DNA from: Trypanosoma brucei
Taxonomy: Eukaryota
Direction: 5' to 3'
Assembly: GCA_000002445.1 (NCBI GenBank)
Contig: CH464491.1
Coordinates: forward strand, 2,336,001 to 2,400,000
Length of the DNA stretch: 64,000 nt
Shown: positions 763 to 47,573 of the stretch, one piece after another
How positions within the stretch are numbered: position 1 is the stretch's first letter
Layout: every line of letters starts with the position of its first letter
Position numbers and translations under genes: made by a program
Notes under the pieces: model-generated
The model's input: only the letters and a program-made list of their open reading frames with translations
Database searches by the model: none
What the model was told of the DNA's origin: nothing

Positions 763-1567
763 TTTAGTGAAGTGAGGACATCAGTCAATGGAAACGCTCA
801 CATTGCCCAATGGCATTCATATACAAATCACCTATACACAAGTACCCATAAACAAAACACATTATACACATGTATTGTTATACAGCTATCATATGTTTTC
901 ATTTTTTGAAGTTATACTTTATATGGTTTATTACTTACATTGTTTTTTCTTAAGCATGCTTGTGCTCATGTACAACCAGTGGAGCAACTGGCTAATAACT
1001 CCTTCATCTTTGTGCGGACACCTTGGTGTATCCTATACTTTCTTTGAGGCCTTCTAATCCAGGTACTTTTTACACACTGTGACGCTAATAAGTGTAGTTC
1101 TTTTGATTAATGTCTACTGCGTGCAGTGATGCGAAAAAGTGTGTACTTTATTTGTATGTTTATCTTCGGGTTTGATTTGTTTGGTTGCTGATGACAGTGG
1201 AAGGCCTCTGCAATTATGAAAACTCATAAGGAGGTCCACTACAATTATACTGTTGTTCCCAGATATACGGGTGTGCGCCTAAAGGGACACGTGACGTTCA
1301 AATTGGATATCCCTCCCATTGTTGACCGTATCTCACATTATTGGATATGTTGTAATCACTGACGGCTTGCTGTGAACTGCCACAGCTGTACACATGCACA
1401 CACATGTGATTCGGTTTTTCTTCTCCCAATATCCTTCCTTTCATATAATATAGGCAACCACACAATATTGGCACAACACCTGCTATCAAACTACCCTAAC
1501 CCAAGTGTCTGTTTGTTTCTTTACGTCACTGGGAGGGTTTTAACAAGAACTAACATTGAGTCTGACC

Positions 1568-3280: not shown

Positions 3281-4085
3281 TGAAATGAGGACATCAGTCA
3301 ATAGAAATTCCCACATTGCCCAATGGCATTCATATACAAATCACCTATACACAAGTACCCATAAACAAAACACATTATACACATGTATTGTTATACACCT
3401 ATCATATGTTTTCATTTTTTGAAGTTATACTTTATATGGTTTATTACTTACATTGTTTTTTTCTTAAGCATGCTTGTGCTCATGTACAACCAGTGGAGCA
3501 ACTGGCTAATAACTCCTTCATCTTTGTGCGGACACCTTGGTGTATCCTATACTTTCTTTGAGGCCTTCTAATCCAGGTACTTTTTACACACTGTGACGCT
3601 AATAAGTGTAGTTCTTTCTTTTGATTAATGTCTACTGCGTGCAGTGATGTGAAAAAGTCTGTACTTTATTTGTATGTTTATCTTCGGGTTTGATTTGTTT
3701 GGTTGCTGATGACAGTGGAAGGTCTCTGCAATTATGAAAACTCATAAGGAGGTCCACTATAATTATACTGTTGTTCCCAGATATACGGGTGTGCGCCTAA
3801 AGGGACAGGTGACGTTCAAATTGGATATCCCTCCCATTGTTGACCGTATCTCACATTATTGGATATGTTGTAATCACTGACGGCTTGCTGTGAACTGCCA
3901 CAGCTGTACACATGCACACACATGTGATTCGGTTTTTCTTCTCCCAATATCCTTCCTTTCATATAATATAGGCAACCACACAATATTGGCACAACACCTG
4001 CTATCAAACTACCCTAACCCAAGTGTCTGTTTGTTTCTTTACGTCACTGGGAGGGTTTTAACAAGAACTAACATTGAGTCTGACT

Positions 4086-5801: not shown

Positions 5802-6606
5802 TGAAATGAGGACATCAGTCAATAGAAATTCCCACATTGCCCAATGGCATTCATATACAAATCACCTATACACAAGTACCCATAAACAAAACACATTATA
5901 CACATGTATTGTTATACACCTATCATATGTTTTCATTTTTTGAAGTTATACTTTATATGGTTTATTACTTACATTGTTTTTTTCTTAAGCATGCTTGTGC
6001 TCATGTACAACCAGTGGAGCAACTGGCTAATAACTCCTTCATCTTTGTGCGGACACCTTGGTGTATCCTATACTTTCTTTGAGGCCTTCTAATCCAGGTA
6101 CTTTTTACACACTGTGACGCTAATAAGTGTAGTTCTTTCTTTTGATTAATGTCTACTGCGTGCAGTGATGCGAAAAAGTCTGTACTTTATTTGTATGTTT
6201 ATCTTCGGGTTTGATTTGTTTGGTTGCTGATGACAGTGGAAGGTCTCTGCAATTATGAAAACTCATAAGGAGGTCCACTATAATTATACTGTTGTTCCCA
6301 GATATACGGGTGTGCGCCTAAAGGGACACGTGACGTTCAAATTGGATATCCCTCCCATTGTTGACCGTATCTCACATTATTGGATATGTTGTAATCACTG
6401 ACGGCTTGCTGTGAACTGCCACAGCTGTACACATGCACACACATGTGATTCGGTTTTTCTTCTCCCAATATCCTTCCTTTCATATAATATAGGCAACCAC
6501 ACAATATTGGCACAACACCTGCTATCAAACTACCCTAACCCAAGTGTCTGTTTGTTTCTTTACGTCACTGGGAGGGTTTTAACAAGAACTAACATTGAGT
6601 CTGACT

Positions 6607-8322
6607 ATGTGTGGGGGAGAAGAGAATGGTGGATTGGATCAGGCACATGTGTCCTACAGTGGCAGTGCGAGTGAGCAAAACATTGCGGAAATGATTGTAG
6701 ACCCATCAGGTTCCCGTCAGCCCACAGCATTCCAACTCACACTCGATTGCAATAAGGCAGGAATGGGAAATGTGGATAAGGAACGTGTGGAAGCTATTAT
6801 ACGTAATGTATCTGAGGGTTCTTCCTTTTTGATGAATGAACAACGTTTGGCTGAGGGTCGAGAGAAGCAACTGCAAGAGCTCAAACGGAAATCATCTCTC
6901 TTCACTCAGTTGTTGGGTGGTGAACGAAACGCTGCGCAGCGGAAACAGTGGGAGCTGAAGGTTTCCAAAATAGAACAGGAGCTTGAGGCTACGCGTCGAC
7001 TGGGAACTTATATCCATTTAGACATGGACATGTTTTATGCTGCTGTTGAAATCAAGAAGCATCCGGAGTACGCCGCCATTCCGCTTGCCATAGGCACCAT
7101 GACGAGGCTACAAACAGCAAATTACATTGCGCGTGGACGTGGTGTTCGATGTAGCATGCCAGGTTTCCTTGCTCTAAAAATCTGCCCGAATTTGCTCATT
7201 CTGCCTCCTGATTTCGATGCTTACAACGAGGAATCCAATACTGTGCGCCGTATTGTTGCTGAATACGACCCTAATTATATCAGCTTTGGTTTGGATGAAC
7301 TGACCCTTGAGGTAAGTGCCTACATAGAGCGTTTTGAGGGAACCAAAACAGCCGAAGATGTGGCTTCTGAACTGCGTGTGCGTGTATTTGGTGATACAAA
7401 GTTGACAGCAAGTGCTGGTATTGGACCCACTGCAGCACTTGCCAAGATTGCCAGTAATATTAATAAGCCGAATGGACAACATGATCTTAATCTTCATACC
7501 CGAGAGGATGTGATGACATACGTCAGGGATTTGGGTCTACGTTCTGTGCCTGGTGTTGGGAAGGTTACGGAAGCTCTGTTGAAGGGACTGGGTATCACCA
7601 CTCTCTCAGATATTTACAATAGGCGTGTTGAACTTTGTTACATTTTGCACAATAATTTATTTCGCTTTTTGCTTGGAGCTTCCATTGGCATTGTGCAATG
7701 GCCCGATGCAGCAACGGCAGCCAATACCGAGAATTGTGAGGGGGCTACTGGAGGGCAACGGAAGGCAATCAGTAGCGAGCGATCCATCACTACTCCACGA
7801 ACCAAAGAAGGTATGCAGGAAATGGTTGATACCGTATTCAATGGTGCCTATGAAGAAATGCGGAAGAGTGAGCTGATGTGTAGACGCATTTCGTTAAGAA
7901 TAAGGTGGGCCTCCTATCGTTATCAACAATACACAAAAAGTTTGATACAATATTCAGATGACTCTGCAACCCTTCGCCGCGCAGTGGATGGTTTACTGTT
8001 ACCGCATGCTGCAAAGTATTCAGAGATTTCACTGTTGGGGGTACGTTTTCTTGACCTTATCTTTGCAAAAGACTTTCATATGAAAAGAAAGGGTGGTAAC
8101 CAACTGTCTATTTCACAATTTATTCGCCCCAAGAAGCCGGGTGAGGTAACAGCAACCACCGGTATAAAAAGGGAGAGGACTACTGAACCGAAACAGGTTG
8201 TGGAAATAATAATATCATCAGACGACGAGGATGAGAATGATAGTGTTGGCTTGGCATCTAGCTCCACTATACTCGTTTCAACTGACAAAGGTACTGTTGA
8301 GAGGGAAGTTACCATAATTTAG
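6607..8322 (+). CDS. POLK: DNA polymerase kappa, array copy 3
   Basis: Same motifs; first ATG at 6607. It carries its own variant blocks (RNVSEGSSFLMNE; LILPPDFDAYNEESNTVRR ... NYISFGLDELTLEV). The catalytic D/E residues are retained. Confidence 0.9.
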   Translation: MCGGEENGGLDQAHVSYSGSASEQNIAEMIVDPSGSRQPTAFQLTLDCNKAGMGNVDKERVEAIIRNVSEGSSFLMNEQRLAEGREKQLQELKRKSSLFTQLLGGERNAAQRKQWELKVSKIEQELEATRRLGTYIHLDMDMFYAAVEIKKHPEYAAIPLAIGTMTRLQTANYIARGRGVRCSMPGFLALKICPNLLILPPDFDAYNEESNTVRRIVAEYDPNYISFGLDELTLEVSAYIERFEGTKTAEDVASELRVRVFGDTKLTASAGIGPTAALAKIASNINKPNGQHDLNLHTREDVMTYVRDLGLRSVPGVGKVTEALLKGLGITTLSDIYNRRVELCYILHNNLFRFLLGASIGIVQWPDAATAANTENCEGATGGQRKAISSERSITTPRTKEGMQEMVDTVFNGAYEEMRKSELMCRRISLRIRWASYRYQQYTKSLIQYSDDSATLRRAVDGLLLPHAAKYSEISLLGVRFLDLIFAKDFHMKRKGGNQLSISQFIRPKKPGEVTATTGIKRERTTEPKQVVEIIISSDDEDENDSVGLASSSTILVSTDKGTVEREVTII

Positions 8323-8744
8323 TGAAATGAGGACATCAGTCAATAGAAATTCCCACATTGCCCAATGGCATTCATATACAAATCACCTATACACAAGTAT
8401 TGTTATACAGCTATCATATGTTTTCATTTTTTGAAGTTATACTTTATATGGTTTATTACTTACATTGTTTTTTTCTTAAGCATGCTTGTGCTCATGTACA
8501 ACCAGTGGAGCAACTGGCTAATAACTCCTTCATCTTTGTGCGGACACCTTGGTGTATCCTATACTTTCTTTGAGGCCTTCTAATCCAGGTACTTTTTACA
8601 CACTGTGACGCTAATAAGTGTAGTTCTTTCTTTTGATTAATGTCTACTGCGTGCAGTGATGCGAAAAAGTCTGTACTTTATTTGTATGTTTATCTTCGGG
8701 TTTGATTTGTTTGGTTGCTGATGGCAGTGGAAGGCCTCTGCAAT

Positions 8745-8890
8745 TATGTTTGTGTTTTTGTTTCTCTGTGTTGCTGTTTTTCTATATTTTTGGAGTTTGT
8801 TTTTTTTCTTCCTGTTTTTTTGCACTTCTTTTCTTTGCTTTCCTCTTGCAACATATTTTTTTATGTAATTGTATTTTTTTTGTGTGTGTA
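8745..8890 (+). promoter_or_regulatory. Unusually long (~145 nt) polypyrimidine/T-rich tract; putative trans-splicing and polyadenylation signal region upstream of the divergent polymerase paralog
   Basis: This stretch is almost entirely T/C/G with T-runs (tgtttgtgtttttgtttctctgtgttgctgtttttctatatttttggagtttgttttttttcttcctgttttttt...). Kinetoplastid pre-mRNA processing is directed by poly-Y tracts upstream of the AG splice-acceptor. Confidence 0.55.
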
Positions 8891-8971
8891 ATGGTGGCGG
8901 ATGTTGTTTTTGTTTTAGTAGTTGAAGTTTTTGTTTGTTGTTGGATTGAGAGCGACAACGGTAGTTTGCTG

Positions 8972-10636
8972 ATGGTTTCGTTTATTTACAGCTGCGTCTC
9001 TAGTCGTCTGATGTTTGCTAGTGTGAAGAGGGCTGTTGGGCAATATTCATGTTTTCATGTGATTTGTTCCCCGCGCTTCCACAGTAACTATGTTGTGGGG
9101 GTCAACAAGGCGCCTAGTTGGATCGCGTCCCCGACAGAAAGGCGACGAAAGTTTGGTGAAGAGTGCCTTGCCGAAGGTAAAGAGCGGGATGGCGACATGG
9201 ATGTAGAGCTTGTTCCCGTGGACGTGAAAAAGCTTGCTTTGCCCCTGCACCTCACGGACTCGATCCCGCAGGATATCGTCGATAATATCGTTGCGAGAGA
9301 TAGAACACTTGTTTTCGCGCCAAACATGAAGATACTAGACCTGCACAGGCGGTTGTCCCGGATGAAGTATCGGATAAGCGTCCAGCCGCTTGGGAAGGTG
9401 CTGCACTTCCGATTCTTTCGGCTGTGTAAATTGTCCAGCGGTATGCCCGGAGATGTTACAGTGGAAACCTTCCGCAGCATCCAGCAGAAACTCTCCGAGT
9501 ACACAAGATTTTTGGTGATGGATGAACGTTGGCCACTGGAGTTGTCATTAGAAATTACCCCCATTATTGAGCATCAACGGAAGCAAATGCTTGAATGCCA
9601 AGGGGAATGCCGCGTTTCAACGGCGGAGGATGTAATGGAGTTACTTAGTAGTGTTTTTTCCGCTGAGCTCCGCGTGGGGGCGTGGTGCGGTTTGTCTTGC
9701 ACACCAGTCTTGGCGAAGATGGCGTGCGACGAGTGTCACAGGAAACACAAACTATGCCGACAGGACTATTCTCGCGGTGGGGTAGTAGGTACCGTGCGTT
9801 ACGATATTAGGTCGCACAAGGAGGCAAAGGAGTTTGTGCAGAACCTTTCGTTGGGCGATATTCCTGTTGTTGGGAAGCCACAGGCGAGGCTCCTGGAAGA
9901 TGTTTATGGCATTACCAAATGCGGCGGGATTGCGGATCAGGAGGTAAGACTGGGTTTCAGCCTGTCGCAGTCGACGATGGAGTTCTTCCTCTCTGTAGCG
10001 TATGGCACCGTTCGACTCCCTAGCGAGGCCACCACCACGCTTTTGCGCAAACCGCCGAGATGTAAGGCCGCCCATATACGGCGCGAGTCACAGTTTGGCC
10101 GTGTGGTATCAGACGAACAGTTTATCAACACCGTAATGTCCGTCTTCGACAACGTGTACACAGACCTTGTGGAACATGATTTCGTGACGGGACGGGTCAT
10201 GATCGAGACACGCCGCACACTCCCGCGCACTCATTGGGTGGTTGAAGAGAGCGAAGACATTGCGCCCCGAACGAACGACCGCGATTTGCTGCGGGAGGTA
10301 ACGATCCGCCTCGCAAGACGTTTTGCCCCACGGCGAACCGAAGAGCTGCGAGACATTTACAGCGTTGGTGTTCATTTCGGAGACGTGCGCTCGTGGTCAG
10401 AGAATGAGAGGTTGCAGAAGAAAGCTGTTGCAGTGAGCGAAGGGGGCAGCCCCACGACAGGCGGAAGGAAGGATGGCGTTATCGGTGCGGCGAACGGTGT
10501 CCCGGCGCCTACAGTGCCCAAGGGTAGCTCTTCCGCTGGGGCACGACAGCAGAAAAGAAAGAGAACGGGCACCGGTCCAAAGCCGTTGAGGAAAGGCAAG
10601 ATGGGGGCGGCATCGGGAATTCGCATCGTCACATAA
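8972..10636 (+). CDS. Divergent Y-family polymerase (pol kappa-like) paralog with a degenerate motif set and a basic Gly/Lys/Arg-rich C-terminal tail; start codon uncertain (candidates 8891, 8972, 9011)
   Basis: Colinear but weak similarity to the array copies: DMDVELVPVD versus DMDMFYAAVE; LVMDERWPLELSLEI versus VGLDDFTLEV; SCTPVLAKMACDECHRKHKLCRQ versus GIGPTAALAKIASNINKPNGQ; GDIPVVGKPQARLLEDVYGITKCGGI versus VPGVGKVTEALLKGLGITTLGDI. The track ORF 8702 starts at TTG inside the poly-Y tract, so the true start is a downstream ATG. The C-terminus GGRKDGVIGAANG...QQKRKRTGTGPKPLRKGK looks like a nuclear localisation signal. Confidence 0.6.
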   Translation: MVSFIYSCVSSRLMFASVKRAVGQYSCFHVICSPRFHSNYVVGVNKAPSWIASPTERRRKFGEECLAEGKERDGDMDVELVPVDVKKLALPLHLTDSIPQDIVDNIVARDRTLVFAPNMKILDLHRRLSRMKYRISVQPLGKVLHFRFFRLCKLSSGMPGDVTVETFRSIQQKLSEYTRFLVMDERWPLELSLEITPIIEHQRKQMLECQGECRVSTAEDVMELLSSVFSAELRVGAWCGLSCTPVLAKMACDECHRKHKLCRQDYSRGGVVGTVRYDIRSHKEAKEFVQNLSLGDIPVVGKPQARLLEDVYGITKCGGIADQEVRLGFSLSQSTMEFFLSVAYGTVRLPSEATTTLLRKPPRCKAAHIRRESQFGRVVSDEQFINTVMSVFDNVYTDLVEHDFVTGRVMIETRRTLPRTHWVVEESEDIAPRTNDRDLLREVTIRLARRFAPRRTEELRDIYSVGVHFGDVRSWSENERLQKKAVAVSEGGSPTTGGRKDGVIGAANGVPAPTVPKGSSSAGARQQKRKRTGTGPKPLRKGKMGAASGIRIVT

Positions 10637-12394: not shown

Positions 12395-12915
12395 TGGGAG
12401 TTATTTGAGTGCCAGAAGATTGATCACCCGGTGGGCAGTTTTTTGTGTGTGCCTTCTCTGTGAATTACTGTGGTGCAGTTGTAAAATATTTCCACCGATG
12501 TCTCTCTTCTCACGGGCGCAATATTGAGAAACTCGGTCGGATCTTTTTTTTCCTCCCTCTTACGGGACCACAATAAAAACTGAAACCAATGAAATGGGTT
12601 GCTTCAAACCCCTGCTGTTAGTTGAATTGTTGTTCGTGCTTTATGACAACTTTTCCCCCTGTGGTGTACTGCACCGCTGATGCTACAGTTTCGCCGTCAC
12701 CCGCCGTTTGTCTTTTGACTGCCGGCTGTAGGCGGCCGTGTTGCAGTTGGCGAATAGCGCTTAAGGTAAGTTTTTCACAAACCCCCATCGCCCAGTGTTT
12801 TTCTTACAACCTGCTATCATTTGCCCTTTGTCTTCGCTTATGTGTTGCGATGCGCTTACGCACGCAAGTAGTGGGAATAGGACAGCTTAGAACATCTTTT
12901 ACTTCACGAATTTGT

Positions 12916-14496
12916 ATGGGTCGTAGGAGCAACTCTGTCTTCTTCCATCTTTGGCTGAGCTTTGCTTCCCTTTGCCTGGGAAACAGCGACAGTTCAGAGG
13001 GGTCACCCCCAGTTTCTAATGGGACATCGCCTGTAGTTTTGAGTGATCAGTCGGTAGCTAATATGGAAGCAAACGACTCTCAATGGAAGCCTATTCGCAT
13101 CGTGGTATCGGCGAAGGACCTTGATGACTCACTGAAGTATTGCGTGGTGGCCGGCGTCCCCCGGCCCGACTTTATGGGCGGGACTTTGCGCTGCAAAACT
13201 GGCGATGTATTGACGAATGAAAAACGACTAATACTTACAGAGCACGCCCTTCCCAGTGCTATCCACTTACATGCCGAGAGACTTCTTGTTGGCATGGAAA
13301 TCGACAACATCGTCGTTCCAGAGTTTGATTCACCTGCGTGTAAAAGTTTCACCGTTCCCATACATCACCGTTCTGTCGGTGTGCCGCAGGCGGATATTAT
13401 TTTGTACGTGGCTTCTGGGCCTGCGCCTCACGATGGTCCCGCTTACGCAACAACATGTGCTTCGCTTCTCTCTGGGCGTCCAATCGCAGGGGCCATAAAT
13501 TTCTCTCCTAGCGCAATCACTGAGTCGTACCTGTACATTCGGACCGTCGCCCACGAAATAGCCCACGTGCTTGGCTTCAATTTCGAAGCCATGAAGCAGC
13601 TCAACATGGTGGGTACAAAAAATATCCGAGGTAAGTCCTCTGTGAAGGTTGTAAAGACACCCAATGTAGTTAAGGTGGCACGTCAATATTACGGTTGCGG
13701 CAAGATCACTGGCATGGAACTGGAAGATAATGGGGATGACAGCGTACGTAACTCGCACTGGAAACGCCGCATTGCAAGAGACGATCTAATGACTGCCATC
13801 ATGGGGGTTAGTCACTACAGTGAGCTAACATTGGCCTTTTTCCTTGATACGGGGTTTTATAGGGTAAATTGGGAGAAAGGGGAACGTATGCGATGGGGCC
13901 ATGGGGCGGGCTGCAGTTTCATAGAGGGAAAATGCATGGAAAACAATGAAACAAACTTCCCAGACATGTTCTGTAACGACTCTGCGGAAACGCTGTCCTG
14001 CACACATGACCGACAAGCACTTGGGCGCTGCACTGTGCATTCATATGCCGTACCCATAGAGGAAAGTGTGCGATACTTCACGATGTCCTGGGTAGGAGGC
14101 AGTGACAATAATCTAATGGACTATTGCCCTGTTGTAGAACCCTATACGGATAGCTACTGCCGAGATGGTCGGCGGGAGCTGTTACCCGGTAGCCGCATAG
14201 GGGAGAGTTCACGTTGCGTTAAGGGTGAAGGACTAGTTGCCTTCACTACTCATGTTGGCGACATATGTGTGGAGATTCATTGTGGAAAGAGGAGGGGAGT
14301 TAGTATACGTTACAGTGGTGATGATAGCTGGCACGTGTGCCCAGAGGGTGGGCATGTGACGCCCGATAAAACCTTTTCAGAAGGCCGCATTGTGTGCCCT
14401 AAGTGGGAAGAAGTTTGCGACGACAATGCCATGACTCTATCATGTCTAGCTGCCGTGTTCGCCATCTTCGTCAGTGCCCTTTCTTTGGTTGTATGA
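12916..14496 (+). CDS. GP63: GP63 / leishmanolysin-family zinc metalloprotease (major surface protease)
   Basis: HExxH zinc-binding motif in leishmanolysin context (VAHEIAHVLGFN). The mature region is Cys-rich. An N-terminal signal peptide follows ATG 12916 (MGRRSNSVFFHLWLSFASLCLG). The hydrophobic C-terminal tail (LSCLAAVFAIFVSALSLVV) is consistent with a GPI-anchor signal. The track ORF 12622 starts at TTG; ATG 12850 is an alternative start. Confidence 0.8.
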   Translation: MGRRSNSVFFHLWLSFASLCLGNSDSSEGSPPVSNGTSPVVLSDQSVANMEANDSQWKPIRIVVSAKDLDDSLKYCVVAGVPRPDFMGGTLRCKTGDVLTNEKRLILTEHALPSAIHLHAERLLVGMEIDNIVVPEFDSPACKSFTVPIHHRSVGVPQADIILYVASGPAPHDGPAYATTCASLLSGRPIAGAINFSPSAITESYLYIRTVAHEIAHVLGFNFEAMKQLNMVGTKNIRGKSSVKVVKTPNVVKVARQYYGCGKITGMELEDNGDDSVRNSHWKRRIARDDLMTAIMGVSHYSELTLAFFLDTGFYRVNWEKGERMRWGHGAGCSFIEGKCMENNETNFPDMFCNDSAETLSCTHDRQALGRCTVHSYAVPIEESVRYFTMSWVGGSDNNLMDYCPVVEPYTDSYCRDGRRELLPGSRIGESSRCVKGEGLVAFTTHVGDICVEIHCGKRRGVSIRYSGDDSWHVCPEGGHVTPDKTFSEGRIVCPKWEEVCDDNAMTLSCLAAVFAIFVSALSLVV

Positions 14497-26677: not shown

Positions 26678-27634
26678 ATGGACCGCTTGCTTCAGTTCCA
26701 CAGCCAATCCGGAGTGGGTTTCATGAGGGGCTCACCACCGCCAGGTTCATCCGGAGGCCTGTCACGGTTAACTGCCGTGGTGCCCGTCGCTGCACCCGGT
26801 TCGGTGGAGGCGGAAACGGTGACAACTCTAGAGACGTTCTTTGAGGTGGTTGCTACGGTGACTGAGTCTATCGACCGAGTAAATGTGTTAATGTGCGAAA
26901 TGTCTAAGAAGCACGAACAAGCCATGGACACAGTGAACGTGGCAAAGTGTGACGCGATTAGAAAGGAAGTTGGCGATTTGGATGACGAAATTAACAATAC
27001 AATCCAGAAGGCGTGTAAGGGGGTCGAGGATATGGAAAACCTAACGAAGAAACTCAAAGAAACTCCGGAGATGGAGGGACGGTTTGCGGGAGTTATTCGT
27101 TTAGAGGAGAACCAACGGCGGTTCGTGCTCCAGAAACTCTCGGAGACAATGGAAGGCCTGCAAAAGCGCCAGCTGGTGGCGGAGAAAAACTACCTCTCGC
27201 AGACGGAGCGGCGGATAAAAATTGCCTACAGCAATCCAGACGGAGGCGAGATGGACGACGAAACAGCCCACCAACTGGCCATGCAGGTGATGGAAAAGGG
27301 TGCAACAACAGCCATTTTCCAGCAGAGCAAAGAAGTTCTGGCTCAAATGCTTGAAACTAGGAGCGACATCTACCGCATTGAAATGTCTATGCGGTCCCTA
27401 AACCGAGTCTTCAGCGACCTGGCAATCCTTGTAGAGGAGCAGGGAGACCTCATGAATGTGATTATCAGAAACATTGACTCGACAAACTTGTACATGGAGA
27501 AAGCCCACAGGGAGCTACAACAGGCACGTGCTTACCAAAGGGCGAGTCGAAGCAAACTGATGTGTCTTCTGATGATTGGGGTTATAATCATTGCTCTTTT
27601 TGTTGCCGCTGGTTTGCTAGGGTCGTTATTGTAA
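26678..27634 (+). CDS. Syntaxin (Qa-SNARE) with a C-terminal transmembrane anchor
   Basis: An N-terminal helical Habc-like region, then a SNARE motif with the zero-layer Gln (IEMSMRSLNRVFSDLAILVEEQGDLMNVIIRNID), then a single C-terminal transmembrane segment (LMCLLMIGVIIIALFVAAGLLGSLL) two residues from the stop. Confidence 0.8.
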   Translation: MDRLLQFHSQSGVGFMRGSPPPGSSGGLSRLTAVVPVAAPGSVEAETVTTLETFFEVVATVTESIDRVNVLMCEMSKKHEQAMDTVNVAKCDAIRKEVGDLDDEINNTIQKACKGVEDMENLTKKLKETPEMEGRFAGVIRLEENQRRFVLQKLSETMEGLQKRQLVAEKNYLSQTERRIKIAYSNPDGGEMDDETAHQLAMQVMEKGATTAIFQQSKEVLAQMLETRSDIYRIEMSMRSLNRVFSDLAILVEEQGDLMNVIIRNIDSTNLYMEKAHRELQQARAYQRASRSKLMCLLMIGVIIIALFVAAGLLGSLL

Positions 27635-31124: not shown

Positions 31125-32764
31125 TTGCCATGAGATTTCCCCGCGATGGAAGCAATATAGACGTATCCGGATAGAATCAAGCATAGAACACTAGAAACAC
31201 CTCAGTTTTGTAGGTGTGCCGCTATTTCCACCGTATTTTTTTTGTTGGTTGTTTGATCATTTAGTTTGGCTAGTACAAGCTGCTACACCCTGCCGCAAAG
31301 GAATGGGGTAAGTGACATGTTCTCTCCCCACAGGTAAATTAACTGTTTCTCATTTATGTCGTTCATAATTCGTCCGTTCGTTTCCCTTTGCGATTTTCTC
31401 GGTACTTAGAAACGAAAGCAACCACACAGTAACACCAGGACGAAACCTGTCATTAATAGGCAACGGAATGTGACATTCGGTGAGGAGTTGTGTGTGTGGG
31501 GGGGACGTCTCTCGTTGGAGAACACTTGGCACGGGAGCATAAAGTTTCAATGGGTGTAGTGGAACTAACTGGTGAAGCGGTTGTTGTGACCGAAGGCGCT
31601 GGGGTGGGGCGGGGTGGCGGCGCTCTGCGAGGCGAGTGGAAGAGAAAAGAAGGAACCCTACACATTTAAGTCATGGGGGGGGTGCGTTTACCAGCGGATG
31701 CACAAAACTTTCATAGGCTTAGGACGTGCGCCTGCCTGGTTCATGTCGCACTGGAGTTATGGTCGATTTGTATGTGCGTGCAATTGGCGGCGGAAACGGG
31801 CGCCTAAACATTTACATCCCCCTTTTTTTTTTTTGAACCCTCACGATTGTTGGCTACTTAGTGCCGTTTCATTGCCATTTGTTGGGGTGACTGTAACGCA
31901 ACTAATCTTAATTCACTGCATGTCTTTTTTGTCGTCAACGCATGGAACCATTGGTTTCTGTATTGTAACAAGACGGCTGCAATTGTGTAAGGGCCTGTTT
32001 ATACCCTCTTCTAACATGTGTCAGCTTTATTGTTCATGCGCATCTTCTTAACCGTTCCCAGTGGATTGGTTTCTTTTCCGAAAACCTTTCTCATCGCTTC
32101 ACTGACGTTTGATACTATGCACATCATCTCTTTCGCACACATACATGAATTTCGTTCCGTGGGTACCCAGTGTTCAGCTAAACACGTAATCGTTCCTCTT
32201 ACCGTCACTGTGGTATCCGTTTATTTTTGGTGTTTGGAGCCCTCTCTTGCATTTTGTTGTGTGTGGGTGGCGGGTGGGATTTCTATCGCTTTTTCCCTTT
32301 GTTGTTTATTTCCCCTGAGGCTGCTTTCTCGCAAAGATATAACGTGAGGGGGGTTTGCCATCGAGTAATAAAAATAAAAGGTAGAAAAGCCGGCAAAGAG
32401 AAAAAGGCGAAAGGTAGGACACGGCTACCAGTTCATCCAAGGCTAAGTTTTCCGGGTTTCGGTTTGTTCTGATACTAAATTGGGTTGACGGCTTCGATAA
32501 ATTCCGTATCTAGAAGTCGGTGGAAAAAAAAAAAAGGAATAATTATCACCTGGCGAGTGAGTGATTTTTACTTGCTTTGTGGGACAAAGCAAAGAAAAAG
32601 GTGGAACTAATACTTGTGGAGTAATTAGAAGTGTTAGTTGAGTGAGCCACAACGATTTAGACGGGTACGTGTGCCAAGGGAAAGGGATAATAGAAGGACT
32701 GAGGGTAAAGCAATAAGAGGAAGAAAGAAGTGTTGTTTTGCTGTTGTTGTTTTTTTTTTTTACA

Positions 32765-33589
32765 ATGGCGAAAGGAAGCGATTATGATGCCGTAGCGTAC
32801 GAGCCAATGCCGAGGGAAGGGTTCGATGCTGGCGATGAGGGACCTTTGGTCGGTAACCATGATCAGGGATTTCTGTTCGATGACCAGGCGGATGGCGCCC
32901 ACAGCACTCAGCTTACCTATATTGCGCCATCAGTCAAGAAGCCGGTATATGCACTGGGTATCACACTACTTTTTCTTCTGGTTGCTGTGGTTTTAACCGT
33001 CATTCTGCAACCCACGTTTCTCTACGGCGAAACCTGCGTTACACCCTTTGGTACCATTATTGGTGTGCACAATGGCGTTTTCGCGTATAGCAACTGCCGA
33101 AGGGATCACATCTCCACCAAAAAAAATAGCATCAAAGGTGAAGGCTCCATGGAGACTGGCATGGAATGGCAGTGCTTTGAGTACGTGAAACGCTATTGGA
33201 TCATGCGTGGAGTTCCTCAGTCTGTTATTTTACCCACTGCAAGAAAGTCCAGTGAACTTTGGTCGTTCACACAAGCAACCTTTAAAAACGGCTCAAAGGT
33301 GCAACTGGAACGGCACGACAATGGGGGGCCCCAACCACTAGTTGGTGACCTTTTGGTATATCGCGAGCAACCCGCCCTGTTGCCGGTTGGTCATGTCGCC
33401 GTTATTGTGCGCGTGGGGAAGACACATGTTTGGGTGGCCGAACAGAACTGGTTTAACAAACAATGGCACCCGCCGTTCCACAACTTTTCACGCACCATCA
33501 AGATGCATCACAATGCAGAAAGCCAAACCTACGAGTTGGAGGACATGGCGGGTACAACTATCAAGGGCTGGATGCGGTACAAGACGTAG
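32765..33589 (+). CDS. CHAP-domain (Cys/His amidase/peptidase fold) protein with an N-terminal signal-anchor; type II membrane topology predicted
   Basis: Transmembrane helix ALGITLLFLLVAVVLTVIL after ~60 cytosolic residues. The C-terminal domain has a conserved Cys in EWQCFEYVKRYW and a His in PVGHVAVIVRVGKTHVWVAEQNW. That spacing and context match CHAP / glutathionylspermidine-amidase-type domains. The track start is TTG 32738; the first ATG is 32765. Confidence 0.5.
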   Translation: MAKGSDYDAVAYEPMPREGFDAGDEGPLVGNHDQGFLFDDQADGAHSTQLTYIAPSVKKPVYALGITLLFLLVAVVLTVILQPTFLYGETCVTPFGTIIGVHNGVFAYSNCRRDHISTKKNSIKGEGSMETGMEWQCFEYVKRYWIMRGVPQSVILPTARKSSELWSFTQATFKNGSKVQLERHDNGGPQPLVGDLLVYREQPALLPVGHVAVIVRVGKTHVWVAEQNWFNKQWHPPFHNFSRTIKMHHNAESQTYELEDMAGTTIKGWMRYKT

Positions 33590-39384: not shown

Positions 39385-41565
39385 TTATTCTCTCATCCTT
39401 TTTCTGTTTCTGTTGCTTGTTGACTGCATACCCCCTCTGTCTCTGAGGGTGTCTGGACTATTCCTGCGTCCGGTGCTTTTCCTGCTAGCTCCACACCCGG
39501 CAATAAGGGGGGAAGTTGCAGAAGGGAGAGTGGGTTGTATGACTGTTACCTTAGGTGAGGACTTCACCTGCGGCCGGCTCCGTTCAACCGCAATGAGAAA
39601 TTGCGCCAGCCTTTTGGAGAAGCATATATCCTGCACACACTCACCTTCTACCGCAAACCTGACACGTAACTCCTCCAAACCGGGACAGCTCATCAAGTGC
39701 AACGACGTTTCTTCGCAGTCGCCGCGTTGGCTGGTAACAGCGCGCTCTACCTTCATACCGTGCATCTTCTTTTGATGTAGGGTGAGGCCAGTTTTGCTAG
39801 CACACTGCCTTCCGCATGTCGGGCACACCAACATGGATGTGTTTGTATGCGGGGAATCAGTGGCACACAATTTTGTGCTTTTGCTGCATTTAAGCTCGAC
39901 TCCCTCACCTTTGTGGAAAGCCTTACAGTGTCGGATGAGGGAGTCCCTGCAACTGAGCACTTTTTGGCACACACCACACTGCACCTCACCTTTCCCCGGG
40001 ACGTCAACGTTTCCCTCACGGGCACGCTTACGAGGGAATTGCACCACCACCACGGTACCGTCCTCCGTCACTATGCTTTTATGTTTGAATTTCTTGTGTA
40101 GTGACAGGGAAGAACGTGTACCGAAGCTCGCCTCGCGCAGGTCACATTGAAACGGCAGCTTCCGTGTATCCTTAGGGGCTGGCACTGCTGGGGCTCTACC
40201 ATCTCCTTGCAATGAGTCTTCGTTCTCTCGCCCCCTTTTCACGCGGCAACTACCGCTGCCTATGCCATGTATTGTTCTAAGGTGGTGTAATAGTCGGCCT
40301 GGCACTGCGAATTTGGAGGCACAGATGGTACAATGAAGAACCTGTGGTCTCATTGGGACTCGTGTGCTCGATGGTAAAGGAACGATCGCCACCACTGGAG
40401 GGGGCTCCGGGGGGATGTCCACTGCAGGTGTTGCATCGCCGTATTTGATCCTCCGGAGGGCATCAGCTCGCACAAAGCCGTGTTTGTTTACCATGTGCGT
40501 TACAGCACTCGAGCGGCATTGGTATGTGGCATCACATTCCGTACATTTGGTCGGTTCGAAGGTTCTCTGAAGAGTGCGTGTCGCAACAGGTGTGGTTGTT
40601 TGTGTTTGTATTGTTGGCCCTATTGCTGCATGTTGCGGGTTGCACCATCGGAACTGTGGAGGCACACTCGGGTTGATTTTTCGCAACATCCATCCATAGT
40701 ATCTTGAAGACCCAACACGAAAGCGTGCCAGTGCCGTTTCTTCTTTCCTCGTCAGTTCTTCTTTATGTTTTGTTGGAAAGTGGTTGCCCGTGATACCAAA
40801 CCTATGAGTGTTCTCATGGACTTCTTCCGANNNNNNNNNNNNNNNNNNNNNNNNNNNNNNNNNNNNNNNNNNNNNNNNNNNNNNNNNNNNNNNNNNNNNN
40901 NNNNNNNNNNNNNNNNNNNNNNNNNNNNNNAACATGATTGGGCCAAGGACAGTTCCTTGTGGCACTCCTCGCTCAAATGTTCTGCTTCTGGAGAGCTTCT
41001 CCTTGAATCTCACTCTGCCAGTTCGGTTACTCAGAAATGATACGCACCACTTCACAATGTGGGGTGATACCTTCATTCTGTGCATTTCCCTCGCAATTTT
41101 GTCGTGGTCTACTGTATCAAATGCCTTCTCGTAGTCAACGAATACAGCACCCGTACGATATTGGTGCGTGGGACGGCAGAGGGCAGCGCGGACGTGCAGG
41201 AGTTGTTCGAGCGTTGAGCATCCGGGGCGAAAGCCTGATTGCTGCGGCGTCAGCTGGGACTCAACAGTGTCTCTAAGTCTCGCGGCAATTATGCGCTCCA
41301 TGACTTTGCAGAGACAGCTCGTGAGCGTCACAGGCCTGTAAGAATCGAGGTCCTCCGCCTTTTTTCCGGCCTTCAGGATGGGGATGATAACACCAGTCTT
41401 CCATGCAGGCGGCACGACTCCCGTTCGTAGGCTCTCATTGAATAGCCTCAGCACAACATTCAGCGCTGTTCTGCCGAGATGTTGCAGTGCCTCGTTGTAT
41501 AAGCAATCAGGTCCGGCTGCGGATCCACTCGGTAGCAGTTTGATCGATCTCCGTAGTTCAGCCAT
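39385..41565 (-). pseudogene. Retroelement ORF, C-terminal part: reverse transcriptase, RNase H-like region and C2H2 zinc fingers; interrupted by a 100-N gap
   Basis: RT motifs: AAGPDCLYNE, GVIIPILKAGKK, and a YxDD-region lost in the gap. C-terminal C2H2 fingers: CTECDATYQCRSSAVTHMVNKHG, CTICASKFAVPGRLLHHLRTIHG, CGVCQKVLSCRDSLIRHCKAFH, CPTCGRQCASKTGLTLHQKKMHG. The ORF translation contains the X run that comes from the N gap. Confidence 0.8.
40831..40930. other. Assembly gap (100 N) inside the retroelement RT region
   Basis: Exactly 100 N, a conventional placeholder size. The element as shown is ~3.9 kb, whereas full-length ingi/L1Tc is ~5 kb, so roughly 1 kb of RT sequence is probably missing here. 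Confidence 0.9.
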
Positions 41566-41643
41566 CGTGATGGGACTGAACTCACTCGCTATCGTCTTTA
41601 TGGGTGCCGGTGGGTGTGAGTCGGGGTGCCTTCTTGCGCGGGA

Positions 41644-42828
41644 CTAGTACAGTTTAATGAACCTCTCAGCTTGACGGTAGTCCGTGATGGCCGCGTTATC
41701 AACAAGTACAGCCTGTGTGGTTAGTGGTCGTGGCGCATATACCTTCTTGACAATGTGCCAACTGCAGCGGTCTGACACCGCAAGTCTGGAGCATAGCGTG
41801 CTCCATCTCTTCTTTGTGGTATGGTCCAGGATCTGCTTACGCGTGGCTACCAACTTTTCCCTTCGGTGGGAGGGTCCGCATCCAGCGATCTCTTCATCGA
41901 GTTTCGCGAGCTCAGGTGTCCAATGTGGTGGCGTTGCTCTGCAGCCACGGGGGACGGAGACCTTCGTCGCAATGCGGATGGCGGAGCTCAATTTCTGTTC
42001 CATGGTGTTGACGTTCTTCTCTCTAACAATTTTCCTGCAGAGCTCGTCAACCTTGAGACGGAAATTCCTCCAGTCAGCTTTTAGCCATGCGTACATGGGC
42101 TTTCGAAGCCGCGGGCAACTCAGTGCATCTGTGCCGTCTCCAACGATAACGTCGAAAAATATGTGATGGTGATCGCTATCGGGAGAATACAGCGATGTCC
42201 ACGTGTACACTGTGCAATTCCTTGACAGTGTCACATCAGGGGTGGACTCCCCGTGGTGGCGCGCGTACCTGGTGCACTCACCAGTGTTGCAGACCAGAAA
42301 CTGGTTGTCAATGCACCACTGTGTGAGGGTTTCACCCTTGGTATTTGGTGGGCTCGCGCGATCCCATGCCAACGCGTGTGCGTTAGCGTCTGCACCGATG
42401 AGCTGGGCACCGTCAGTCATCAGAAGCGTATCTAGGTCAGTTGCCGTGAAGGTGTGTTTTGGTGGGATGTATGCCGACGTGACAGTCAGCGCTGTTCCAC
42501 GTGCAAGGTGAATTGTTGCATGCACTTGTTCAATGCGACCAACAACGGTCATACCGGTCTCGACTGGCAGGTCCTCCCTCACTAGTATTGATACACCACC
42601 TCCTTTGCAGTTACGAGCTATTCCGTGATGTTGGTAGCCAGCAACGCTAAAGCAAGCCGCCTCTCCAGGCGTCATCCTTGTCTCGCTCAACAGACAAAAG
42701 GCGATCCGCTCATCAACAAGGGTTTTGTGGAGTGCTAATCTCTTTCCTTGAGATAGCCCGGCGCAGTTCCACTGCATCCCGCGCAACGACGGGCCGGGAT
42801 TCTCTTCCACATCACCGGACAGCAGCAT
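41644..42828 (-). pseudogene. Retroelement ORF, N-terminal part: 2A self-cleaving peptide (DVEENPGP) followed by an apurinic/apyrimidinic-type endonuclease domain; ends at an in-frame TAG
   Basis: MLLSGDVEENPGP matches the D(V/I)ExNPGP 2A consensus. The following sequence MQWNCAGLSQGKR...LLSETRM is typical of the N-terminus of LINE endonucleases. The stop TAG at 41646-41644 is in the same reading frame as the downstream RT ORF (42828-41565 = 1263 = 3 x 421). Confidence 0.8.
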
Positions 42829-44321
42829 CTTAGTGCGGGTGATACTGCTGATGGCACGCTAGCCACGTGCCCAGGGACCGACAAATGAAAAACGGTGTCA
42901 CAGCAAGACGCTGCTGATCCCTGTGCTGTATGATGCCGTAGCCGGAGCACAGCAGTGTTCCCCATGAAAGGAACGCTGCTGGCTCTTGGCTTCCCCCGAT
43001 GATACGGGGTACTGGACCCTGACACCACGTTGATGTGGCCGGCATCGCCAGGGTTCAAAACATTTTTTCCCAACCTAATGAAGGCTAGTCTTTTCGCTAG
43101 GCTCCTGCGTTGATTTGCCTTACTTTCACGGACTCTCTGTTCCGGCACCCATTGTTGTGGCAGCATGTCGCCCCTATTAGGGATTGTATTTGATGTCAAC
43201 GGGCGAACAACAGATGTAATGCCCTCGTTGGAGTCTTCAAGTGCCGTCCACTCCACCTTTCCCCTATTTACGGGGCTTAATTGCGCGTTCCTTTCAGTAA
43301 TTTGGGCCAACCAGCCCCCTTTTCTGAGGAAGTAAAAGGTTGTGGAGTTTTGAAGTACATTATCCTTTTCATATCGCGCCCCACTGCTACATTGGAGGTG
43401 ATCCAACTGTGGTAGCTGTTACGGTTCCGCACCACATTCTGAACGATCACCTCACAACGCCAGAAATAGGTAACGTTTGTGTGAAACAGCCTGTCTCCCA
43501 GTGTTGTGTGTCACATTAGGTCTTCACTGCCGGTGACCATTAAACTCTTCTCCAGTTGCCAAATTTAATATCAGCTTCTCTCACTCTCTTCCTTTGGGGC
43601 GCGCGAGTTCCGGCAGCAGGGCGACAATTCGAATCCGCTCAAAATAGCCGTGGACCTTTATTTCTCCCAGTAACTCCGACCTTCCCGTGCTCACGTTAGA
43701 GTTGTCGGGGAAAGGGAAATATGTCACAGCATGCTGTTCACTACTTTCAGGCACCATTGCAACAGTGACGCTTCCCAAATCTGTGTTTGTTCTCAGACTC
43801 GTAGCTACACCACTCCAAAACGAACGTGTGTTGACGCCCTGGTGCTTTTCTCTCTAAAATGGGCAAGCCCCGTGTGTTTGCAACCATAGGAGGTGAATGG
43901 CGCGGTTCCCATAATCTTTGCGATCACCTCCTGCGTGACGGAAAGGTCCAGCGCGCCCTCGCAGAGCATTGCCGGGAGGGTCACACGTTTCCGCCTGAGA
44001 GGTGTCCCTCCGTTTCGTTAAGCTCCGATGATGGGAGCGGGAACTGGGTTCTGCTTGGTATCCCCGCTGAGGGACAAGATAACCCCGTCAACAGAGCATA
44101 AAAGTGTGCACTTTCGCCGGCATTAGGCAGTGCTTAAAGTGGGCACCTTCCCGTGGTGCTCGACTGTTGCCGCACCTAGTTGCTCTGGTTGGCTGATGTC
44201 AGGTGCCACCGCTGTGCCAATGCTCGAAGGGGGGCCTTGTTCCTTACCTTGGAGGCCGACAGCCCCTGATACCACGATGGGACGACCGGTGTTCCCACGG
44301 TTGGTGTTGATGTTCTGCGTA

Positions 44322-46526: not shown

Positions 46527-47573
46527 ATGGCCTTTTCTGCACTAGCCGCTGTTTTTTTCACCGGTTTCTGTGTTCTGTTCGCCACTATATTAGCTTTTTC
46601 TCCGCGACAGACCCATGATAGGAAGAAGGTGCTGGCGCGGTTGAGAGCTAAATTCCCCTACTCTGTCAGTAAGATCGCTCACAGAGGGGGGAGTATATTG
46701 GGACCGGAAAATACTTTGTATGCTTTCCACAGGGCAGTGAAGGAGGGCGCGGCGGACATGCTGGAGTTAGATGTTCGCGAAACCATGGACTATCGTATTG
46801 TGGTTTGCCATGACGAGTGGCTGGAAAGACTTTGTGGGAGTGCGTACAAGCACGTGACTGTAAAAGACATCACGGTTGGCGACGATCCCAACACCAATCT
46901 CCCCCAACTGCAAAGGAATATACCTCTCCATTTTGTGTCTAGTGAGAAAACCATGTACTGTGCCACAGATTCCGTACCAGTGGACGGCACCACTCGCTTG
47001 TGCTTGCTGGAAGAAGTATTCGAAGCATTTCCTACTATCCCAATTCACATTGATATTAAATATGCGAGTTCAGATTTCACTGATCGGATATTCGATTTGA
47101 TTAAGAAATATGGACGCGAACCGGTTACATTCGTTGGCAGTAGCAACTGGAGGAATGAAATATATATTACAAGGCATATGAAAAGACTTTCTTCACAGAA
47201 GGACAAGTGTAAATTTCACACCTTCGCCGGTCCCATAGACTACGTGCTTGTGCACGTTGCTCACTATATTGGCGTGCTGCCGCTGATCCCCTTGAACTTT
47301 GATATTTTTTCTGTTCCCTTATTTACGAAACGAAAGAAACAAGAAATTCCATTTTTCTTGCGGCCGATAGCACAGCTTTTAAATTCCCCGTCCCTGTGGA
47401 TGCACTTGCAGCAGCGGGGTATTCTTGTTGTCGGTTGGGTGCTAAACGACGTCGATGAGTTCGAGGAGGCTTCTAGATGGCCAATAAATGGTGTAATGAC
47501 CGATGATCCAATATCATTCAACGGTTTCCTAATATCACACGACGTTTCTAATACGATGAATTTGCTGAACTGA
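46527..47573 (+). CDS. Glycerophosphodiester phosphodiesterase (GDPD/GP-PDE family)
   Basis: N-terminal transmembrane/signal segment. The GDPD signature is HRGGSILGPENTLYAFHRAVKEGAADMLELDVRETMDYRIVVCHDEWLERL, with the two catalytic His (HRG, CHD) and metal-binding E/D. Later IHIDIK and VVGWVLND (compare W.VN) are typical of the family's C-terminal TIM-barrel strands. Confidence 0.8.
   Translation: MAFSALAAVFFTGFCVLFATILAFSPRQTHDRKKVLARLRAKFPYSVSKIAHRGGSILGPENTLYAFHRAVKEGAADMLELDVRETMDYRIVVCHDEWLERLCGSAYKHVTVKDITVGDDPNTNLPQLQRNIPLHFVSSEKTMYCATDSVPVDGTTRLCLLEEVFEAFPTIPIHIDIKYASSDFTDRIFDLIKKYGREPVTFVGSSNWRNEIYITRHMKRLSSQKDKCKFHTFAGPIDYVLVHVAHYIGVLPLIPLNFDIFSVPLFTKRKKQEIPFFLRPIAQLLNSPSLWMHLQQRGILVVGWVLNDVDEFEEASRWPINGVMTDDPISFNGFLISHDVSNTMNLLN

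Follow-up and report, generated by a model that had tools for sequence, protein, structure and literature searches.

Trypanothione metabolism is a parasite-specific and validated drug target area, and to our knowledge all of its known enzymes are cytosolic. Amidase domains of the kind considered here are best known from two bifunctional enzymes, the glutathionylspermidine (Gsp) synthetase-amidase of Escherichia coli (EcGspSA; amidase domain, GspA) and the trypanothione synthetase-amidase (TryS) of Leishmania major (LmTryS). The catalytic triad of LmTryS consists of Cys59, His130, and Asp146, with Asn148 as the oxyanion residue (Fyfe et al., PMC2427367), and the E. coli amidase domain is active in isolation (PMC6272389). 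A third system, ERGAD, is a Gsp-amidase-domain paralogue resident in the endoplasmic reticulum (ER), which carries a signal peptide and a KDEL-like tail and has lost its nucleophile (2024 study, PMC10903960). Mashiyama et al. (2012) recognized five members of MEROPS family C51 in Trypanosoma brucei, namely, TryS and four uncharacterized amidase-only proteins with aligned active-site residues (PMC3516576); CHAP proteins were mentioned in L. major by Besteiro et al. (2007) (PMC2244715), and a 2025 paper treats a Trypanosoma cruzi C51 protein as an in silico drug target.

Here, we analyze a CHAP gene of T. brucei that lies in a 64,000-nucleotide stretch of contig CH464491.1 (positions 2,336,001 to 2,400,000, assembly GCA_000002445.1; this whole stretch is hereafter called the window, and the product of the gene, the window protein). 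The protein combines an N-terminal tail, a transmembrane segment, and a single CHAP domain of the Gsp/trypanothione amidase subtype, and the full set of catalytic residues is present. On balance, we consider it probable that the protein works outside the cytosol as a Cys-His-Glu amidase and cleaves a small amide, of glutathione type or similar.

Gene and CHAP domain

The open reading frame (ORF) encodes a protein that is identical at every residue to XP_828946.1 of T. brucei brucei TREU927 (EAN79834.1; UniProt Q384E7), which is assigned to chromosome 11. T. b. gambiense and T. equiperdum have alleles with 99% identity; the reading frame is uninterrupted in all three, and all carry the name "glutathionylspermidine synthetase, putative." Judging from this product name and the chromosome, the gene is probably Tb11.12.0016. 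It has no paralogue elsewhere in the window (a tblastn search with the window protein returned only the self-match). The gene and its predicted elements are as follows.

32750-32761, plus strand: run of 12 T residues (polypyrimidine) abutting the annotated ATG; the first AG downstream, at 32773-32774, is within the ORF
32765-33589, plus strand: complete ORF, ATG to stop, 274 amino acids plus stop, with the same residues as XP_828946.1/Q384E7
32765-32944, plus strand: acidic N-terminal tail, residues 1-60, predicted to be cytosolic; not conserved in the family, with a predicted local distance difference test score (pLDDT) of <50 in the first AlphaFold2 model
32945-33010, plus strand: predicted single transmembrane signal-anchor, residues 61-82, VYALGITLLFLLVAVVLTVILQ; Kyte-Doolittle 19-mer maximum of 3.0, predicted helix 60-81
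33035-33586, plus strand: Gsp/trypanothione-amidase-type CHAP domain, residues 91-274, predicted to be lumenal or extracellular (Pfam, NCBIfam, PDB sequence matches, AlphaFold2, and Foldseek)
33035-33037, plus strand: Cys91, first half of a candidate structural disulfide; co-varies with Cys111
33095-33097, plus strand: Cys111, second half of the candidate disulfide; co-varies with Cys91
33173-33175, plus strand: nucleophile Cys137 by alignment (equivalent to Cys59 of E. coli GspA and Cys59 of LmTryS), kept in 142 of 143 family domains
33287-33295, plus strand: sequon N175-G-S, in the loop where L. major LmjF.33.2850 has its glycosylated NAT (sequence)
33392-33394, plus strand: catalytic His210 by alignment (equivalent to LmTryS His130), kept in 142 of 143
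33440-33448, plus strand: Glu226-Gln-Asn228, by alignment the third triad residue (LmTryS Asp146) and the oxyanion Asn (LmTryS Asn148)
33482-33490, plus strand: N240-F-S, second N-glycosylation sequon of the predicted ectodomain (sequence)

CHAP (PF05257) is the sole Pfam family in the window protein, with a match of 43.0 bits (gathering cutoff of 26; E = 6.4e-11) that spans residues 131-228 and profile positions 4-81 of 81. The top NCBIfam match is the bifunctional Gsp amidase/synthase model PRK10507, covered only at positions 10-189 of 619 and at 56.8 bits versus an equivalog cutoff of 882, a partial match that indicates an amidase domain without a synthetase. Consistent with this, a Pfam scan of the window protein recovers no GSP_synth/ATP-grasp synthetase domain (PF03738), whereas both domains are found in each of two bifunctional proteins used as positive controls (P0120 and P0149). 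Because the synthetase domain is absent from this 274-residue protein, its domain content makes the database name of Q384E7, "glutathionylspermidine synthetase," wrong.

Searches of PDB sequences matched only EcGspSA (residues 10-189, E = 1.4e-10) and LmTryS (E = 3e-10); both align over the full ~180-residue amidase domain (query residues 93-270 with EcGspSA), with the motifs PFG, WQC(F/V)E(Y/F), GHVA, and (V/I)A(E/D)QN in register. In the translated ORF, EWQCFEYVKRYW holds Cys137 and GHVAVIVRVG holds His210. An AlphaFold2 model of residues 85-274, based on a 101-sequence alignment (mean pLDDT of 95.2, predicted TM score of 0.91) and used in place of an earlier model from a 4-sequence alignment (pLDDT of 58), was compared with the PDB by Foldseek. 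The 20 top matches are all Gsp/trypanothione amidase chains, including 3A2Y and 2VOB (TM scores of 0.80 to 0.85, root mean square deviations [rmsd] down to 1.8 to 2.1 Å), whereas endolysin-type CHAP domains (LysK and LysGH15) reach TM scores of only ~0.40. On this modeled fold, the domain is therefore of the Gsp/trypanothione amidase subtype and not a generic cell wall CHAP, and the traits of that subtype, an N-terminal PFG...AYS hairpin and a C-terminal GW strand, are present.

In an alignment of 143 family domains, the column of Glu226 holds Glu in 141 domains and Asp in the other 2, and Asn228 is kept in 142. In the model, Cys137 opens helix alpha-1 (137-148), His210 opens a beta-strand, and Glu226 follows the next strand; a Cys at the start of a helix and a His at the start of a strand are the arrangement of all CHAP and papain-like enzymes.

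Predicted membrane anchor, cysteine pair, and possible glycosylation

The hydrophobic segment begins 60 residues from the N terminus, too distant for a cleavable signal peptide, and thus is best read as a signal-anchor in type II orientation. A Lys pair (KK58-59) precedes the segment on its N-terminal side, and a Glu lies on the far side. For the family, there is good support for a catalytic domain outside the cytoplasm, and the window protein probably has the same topology, which draws on three lines of evidence, the exported bacterial relatives, a co-varying pair of cysteines, and a glycosylated homologue in L. major.

(i) Among 25 bacterial or archaeal loci with relatives, 24 encode short stand-alone proteins (~200 to 290 amino acids; the remaining one is 645 amino acids long), and nearly all possess a signal peptide or a lipoprotein lipobox, as do the metagenomic representatives.

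(ii) Cys91 and Cys111 flank the first beta-hairpin of the domain. Ninety proteins of the family have both residues, 11 lack both, and 10 have a single one (Fisher p = 3e-8, with no correction for phylogeny). EcGspA, LmTryS, and two bifunctional representatives do not have the complete pair, P0120 having the first Cys only. Co-variation of the two residues, together with the lack of the complete pair in cytosolic enzymes, is the pattern expected of a structural disulfide.

(iii) L. major LmjF.33.2850 is present in an N-glycoproteome (PMC9769760), and its glycopeptide, GAADIWDSLTHVTFLDNATTAPLLK with Hex6HexNAc2, falls inside the CHAP domain, in the loop that holds N175-G-S in the window protein. 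An N-glycosylated catalytic domain is thus demonstrated for LmjF.33.2850 only, and the window protein has sequons.

A preliminary description of the locus had proposed a free-standing CHAP-like domain in a eukaryote, a Cys and a His within it, an N-terminal signal-anchor, and a catalytic domain facing a lumenal or extracellular compartment. The profile and fold matches, the aligned Cys137, His210, and Glu226 (with Asn228), the hydrophobic segment at residues 61-82, and the identity to a T. brucei protein bear out the first three of these proposals, and the fourth gains support from the bacterial export signals, the cysteine pair, and the L. major glycopeptide.

Family, origin, and genomic setting

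An HMMER search run exhaustively over 1.84 billion representatives produced 1578 matches at E <= 1e-3, of which 114 reach E <= 1e-30. The trypanosomatid members, which are annotated as MEROPS C51, "D-alanyl-glycyl endopeptidase-like," come from T. cruzi, T. vivax, T. conorhini, T. theileri, T. grayi, T. rangeli, Leishmania, Novymonas, Porcisia, and Strigomonas and also include two paralogues on T. brucei chromosome 2. Almost all share the layout of a tail, a transmembrane segment, and the domain, as well as a GW(M/V)RY ending, with which the KGWMRYKT terminus of the window protein is in line; in a tree of 143 domains, 26 sequences group with the window protein, and 21 of them have an internal transmembrane segment.

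A neighbor-joining tree of 32 sequences (500 replicates) recovers a clade of 22 trypanosomatid sequences, including the window protein, with 98% bootstrap support. Within this clade, the other Trypanosoma sequences form one group (82%) and Leishmaniinae with Strigomonas another (67%), and the chromosome 11 protein falls outside both on a long branch. Over the domain, it is 38 to 47% identical to trypanosomatid members (40 to 47% outside T. brucei, and 38% to the chromosome 2 paralogues), 32 to 38% identical to bacterial stand-alone proteins, and 28 to 32% identical to the amidase domains of bifunctional enzymes. By these sequence comparisons, the chromosome 11 gene is a divergent paralogue, so far seen in the T. 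brucei group only, and the most divergent member sampled. Synteny with T. melophagium, the source of the closest named homologues, was tried as a route to orthology and set aside: the flanking genes there are unrelated to the neighbors in the window, so that no positional orthologue could be assigned.

The T. melophagium contig (JAJSEB010000032.1; L001, 10001-14604) carries two tandem CHAP genes whose catalytic halves are identical and whose N-terminal tails and transmembrane segments are unrelated. A third CHAP-like gene follows them; its nucleophile motif, KWKSVEY, has Ser in place of Cys, and its product is probably a pseudoenzyme. On T. brucei chromosome 2, the two paralogues (P0011 and P0216) likewise have C-terminal halves identical to each other. 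Identical catalytic halves joined to divergent membrane stalks suggest, from the sequences, gene conversion of the catalytic domain.

As for the horizontal origin raised in the preliminary description, phylogeny upholds the monophyly of the trypanosomatid proteins, and the backbone of the 143-domain tree, with bootstraps of no more than 31%, does not discriminate between a bacterial source and duplication of the TryS amidase domain. Identities and hidden Markov model scores are higher to bacterial stand-alone proteins than to bifunctional enzymes, which points to a separate origin, with the caveat that the scores are biased toward the stand-alone proteins by a profile that contained a bacterial stand-alone sequence. 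The novelty claimed for the protein was overstated: the gene is already annotated and catalogued, the family is trypanosomatid-wide and was listed in 2012 (PMC3516576), and an ER-lumenal relative, ERGAD, has been described (PMC10903960). What seems to be added to the literature, all of it computational, is the assignment to the Gsp amidase subtype, a likely disulfide-bonded extracytoplasmic domain, and the recognition of the chromosome 11 gene as a divergent paralogue confined to the T. brucei group.

Bacterial gene neighborhoods show no consistent tie to glutathione, polyamines, or the cell wall. In Thiothrix and relatives (L007, L009, L019, L022, L023, and similar; ~2700-7000), a lipoprotein form of the amidase lies within a conserved cluster of housekeeping genes, hisC-tyrA-[amidase]-aroA-cmk. 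Two gammaproteobacterial metagenome-assembled genomes (MAGs), of Aeromonadales and Enterobacterales (L027, 3673-6637, and L021, 112-2854), contain an operon-like PALP-CHAP-PALP arrangement, and the metagenomic protein P0121 (624 amino acids) is a PALP-CHAP fusion; the PALP enzymes are pyridoxal phosphate dependent, and these neighbors and the fusion may link the bacterial proteins to Cys/Ser-type amino acid chemistry. The bacterial sequence most like the window protein (P0028, 38 to 41% identity) is encoded 9 bp downstream of a CN_hydrolase gene on JGI metagenome contig Ga0136261_1000073 (L002, 7153-8702), and the TLC ATP/ADP translocase and NttA genes on the same contig suggest a Legionellales-like intracellular bacterium.

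In the window itself, the genes around the CHAP gene fit an ordinary core region with plus-strand transcription, and they include a Y-family polymerase array and genes for a leishmanolysin, an AAA ATPase, DEAD-box helicases, a syntaxin, CEP76, Sua5, and a kinase. The following features were located.

118-10636: array of Y-family (IMS/Pol kappa-like) DNA polymerases, with three tandem ORFs of ~575 amino acids at 1556-3280, 4074-5801, and 6595-8322 (Pfam scan of the middle ORF only; the outer two are assumed to be copies by equal length and spacing)
118-762: ORF of 214 amino acids close to the window edge, in the polymerase array region
8702-10636: ORF of 644 amino acids with a weak partial IMS match
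12622-14496: leishmanolysin/GP63 (Peptidase_M8)
26678-27634: syntaxin/SNARE
39385-43406, minus strand: ingi-type non-long-terminal-repeat retrotransposon (long interspersed nuclear element) with endonuclease, reverse transcriptase, and C2H2 zinc finger
46527-47573: glycerophosphodiester phosphodiesterase

The ingi element is antisense within the plus-strand gene array, and its coding region, split among three ORFs, looks degenerate. Trypanosome gene arrays are not operons, and so the secretory or surface-related genes nearby, for leishmanolysin, syntaxin, and glycerophosphodiester phosphodiesterase, imply no functional tie to the CHAP gene.

Possible function and relation to known systems

As an active extracytosolic amidase, the window protein would be a type II single-pass protein (N terminus in, C terminus out) whose signal-anchor delivers the amidase domain to the ER lumen, where it probably would be stapled by a Cys91-Cys111 disulfide and N-glycosylated before moving on to the cell surface or to a secretory or endocytic compartment. 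With His210 (itself oriented by Glu226) as its activator and Asn228 as the oxyanion residue, Cys137 would attack the amide to give an acyl-thioester, which water would then hydrolyze. Enzymes with this fold and machinery split the Gly-spermidine amide of Gsp or trypanothione. The most likely substrate class would be a glutathione-type C-terminal amide (Gsp, trypanothione, or their conjugates) or a similar small extracytosolic peptide amide. Of 22 positions conserved at 90% or more across the family, 19 are retained in the window protein, and the three departures (V138F, R142K, and A162S) are all conservative. The mRNA of Tb11.12.0016 is ~2-fold higher in bloodstream forms (PMC2771046 and PMC2837033). 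LbrM.33.3110, the family member of L. braziliensis, is the seventh most abundant parasite transcript in biopsies of human cutaneous lesions (PMC5025153), a strikingly high level for an uncharacterized enzyme.

Several observations weigh against this reading. Consensus retention of the window protein is under the 5th percentile of the family, and its changes cluster on helix alpha-1, which is atypical beside the nucleophile (QCFEYVKRYW versus a consensus of QCVEYARRYW), so that its specificity may differ. LmTryS residues Asp38, His39, Thr123, and Asn126, the proposed spermidine binders (PMC2427367), are not conserved: in the MAFFT alignment, the window protein has R113, D114, Q202, and L205 in columns that are variable throughout the family, and the HMMER pairwise alignment differs in pairing D114-H115 with D38-H39, which marks the loop alignment as ambiguous. 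Specificity for Gsp, trypanothione, or their conjugates is much less likely for the window protein than the general mechanism. Moreover, trypanothione is a cytosolic metabolite, and an extracytosolic amidase requires an exported or exogenous substrate that is so far hypothetical. Comparison of brucei with gambiense gives four nonsynonymous and no synonymous differences, none in catalytic motifs, and hence no sign of purifying selection; the comparison has no statistical power, since a 4:0 split has a neutral probability of ~0.37, and is uninformative. A search of the literature that covered the accession, the gene ID, and the two annotation names turned up no enzymology or localization study of any transmembrane-anchored member.

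The 5' end adds a further reservation, in that both Met1 (32765) and Met15 (32807) may serve as the start, and the trans-splice site is likewise a candidate only. If the AG at 32773 were the trans-splice acceptor, translation would begin at Met15, and the mRNA would open with a 3-codon, out-of-frame upstream ORF (ATGATGCCGTAG at 32784); the cytosolic tail would then be 14 residues shorter, and the transmembrane segment and domain would be the same as before. A second polypyrimidine tract and AG occur upstream at 32289-32318, and T. b. gambiense has a matching arrangement of T run, ATG, and AG, with a longer T run. No spliced-leader junction for this 5' end was found in Logan contigs, which look genomic.

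A narrower form of the active-amidase reading, which we consider unlikely, holds that the family comprises ecto- or lumenal amidases of trypanothione, Gsp, or their conjugates and performs the first extracytosolic step in conjugate breakdown and salvage. The substrates would be drug-, metal-, or oxidant-derived trypanothione adducts exported by MRPA-type transporters, or environmental Gsp, and their spermidine and glutathione moieties would be freed for reuptake; the recruit for this role would have been an amidase lineage of the bacterial periplasm, separate from that of TryS. Gamma-glutamyl transpeptidase, a type II ectoenzyme in the catabolism of glutathione conjugates, offers a parallel.

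The first alternative to an active amidase is that the gene represents a noncatalytic or decaying lineage-specific paralogue, either an inactive enzyme or binding protein comparable to ERGAD or a gene on its way to being lost. Its confinement to the T. brucei group, on a long branch outside the other Trypanosoma and Leishmaniinae clades, its low consensus retention, the 4:0 split of substitutions, and the existence of inactive relatives (ERGAD and the Cys-to-Ser copy of T. melophagium) would all fit. We nevertheless judge it improbable, in that all four catalytic residues, along with 19 of 22 near-invariant positions, persist at only 40 to 47% identity to the closest relatives, brucei, gambiense, and equiperdum each have an uninterrupted ORF, the gene is transcribed and stage regulated, and the substitution split is, as noted, uninformative.

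The second alternative is that the protein is a peptidoglycan hydrolase or cell wall peptidase, as the label "D-alanyl-glycyl endopeptidase-like" implies, acting on bacteria or fragments met by the parasite. CHAP domains are mostly peptidoglycan amidases or endopeptidases (Bateman and Rawlings, 2003), the nearest relatives outside trypanosomatids are periplasmic proteins and lipoproteins of Gammaproteobacteria, which adjoin peptidoglycan, and there is a very weak NCBIfam match to PcsB (E = 0.14). Against these stand the higher TM scores to Gsp/TryS chains than to endolysins (0.80 to 0.85 versus ~0.40), the Gsp-amidase-specific N-terminal PFG...AYSN hairpin, the higher mRNA in bloodstream forms, whose surroundings are bacteria-free, the lack of an SH3b or LysM cell wall-binding module in a Pfam scan of the window protein, and the lack of associated cell wall genes in the bacterial neighborhoods. 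Of the two functions offered as alternatives in the preliminary description, the modeled fold argues for the Gsp amidase type, and we hold a cell wall function to be quite improbable.

Less probable again is the reverse topology, in which a membrane-tethered amidase would face the cytosol and act on cytosolic trypanothione or Gsp. The known substrates of the Gsp amidase fold are indeed cytosolic, and the net charge of the N-terminal tail (about -7) could, taken alone, favor translocation of the N terminus; however, KK lies just before the transmembrane segment and Glu after it, a 60-residue N-terminal domain preceding a signal-anchor is normally cytosolic, the homologous L. major domain is N-glycosylated, the bacterial homologues are exported, and Cys91/Cys111 co-varies in noncytosolic members only. 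Finally, that the protein is a Gsp synthetase, as GenBank and UniProt have it, draws on the database name and nothing else and is refuted by domain content (274 amino acids with CHAP only, beside real bifunctional proteins that display both domains), leaving it virtually no chance.

Were the window protein active outside the cytosol, it would represent either an undescribed extracytosolic branch of thiol-polyamine turnover, with bearing on polyamine salvage and on what becomes of drug-trypanothione conjugates, or a class of substrate new to this fold. The family spans the trypanosomatids; a Leishmania member is glycosylated and, in human lesions, ranks with the most abundant transcripts of the parasite, and a T. 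cruzi member was chosen as an in silico drug target without knowledge of its substrate. Meanwhile, the misleading name "glutathionylspermidine synthetase" has been repeated in transcriptome papers (PMC2771046 and PMC2837033).

Set beside the described enzymes, the window protein shares with E. coli GspA a ~180-residue fold aligned end to end (TM scores of 0.81 to 0.84), the Cys-His-Glu triad, the oxyanion Asn, and the motifs PFG, WQC(V/F)E(F/Y), GHVA, and AEQN. Identity is only ~27 to 29%, and the E. coli enzyme is cytosolic and fused to an ATP-grasp synthetase, whereas the window protein has a membrane anchor, a predicted extracytoplasmic location, and the extra Cys91/Cys111 pair. LmTryS comes from the same group of organisms and is similarly close in fold (TM scores of 0.83 to 0.85 and rmsd of 1.8 to 2.1 Å for the best chains), with an equivalent nucleophile, His, and oxyanion Asn. 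It differs in having Asp as the third triad residue, where the window protein has Glu, and in the residues proposed for its polyamine cleft, Asp38, His39, Thr123, and Asn126; the window protein, for its part, has no synthetase domain and no autoinhibitory C-terminal tail and belongs to a separate clade (98% bootstrap).

The endolysin CHAP structures (LysK CHAPK, 4CSH, and LysGH15, 4OLK) belong to the same superfamily and have the core Cys-His arrangement, but at TM scores of ~0.40 and identities of 12 to 15%, and without the N-terminal hairpin and C-terminal barrel extension of Gsp amidases. ERGAD is likewise a single Gsp-amidase-like domain in the kinetoplastid secretory pathway, but it is soluble, whereas the window protein is predicted to be anchored in the membrane, ends in MRYKT, with neither a cleavable signal nor a KDEL-like motif, and keeps its nucleophilic Cys137. 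Stand-alone Gsp-amidase-like CHAP proteins of bacteria (Thiothrix, Lamprobacter, Silvanigrellales, Legionellales-like, and other MAGs) resemble it in the Cys pair, the lack of a synthetase, and the extracytoplasmic location, and their identity to it (32 to 38%) exceeds that of the bifunctional enzymes; they are exported by a cleavable signal or held by a lipid anchor, in contrast to its type II transmembrane anchor. Closest of all are the transmembrane-anchored C51 proteins of trypanosomatids (Q586Y1 on T. brucei chromosome 2, LmjF.33.2850, and TcCLB.508771.10), with which the window protein shares the order of tail, transmembrane segment, and domain, the GW(M/V)RY end, and the catalytic residues, and from which it is set apart by 40 to 47% identity, a position outside the main Trypanosoma clade, and a different (incorrect) product name.

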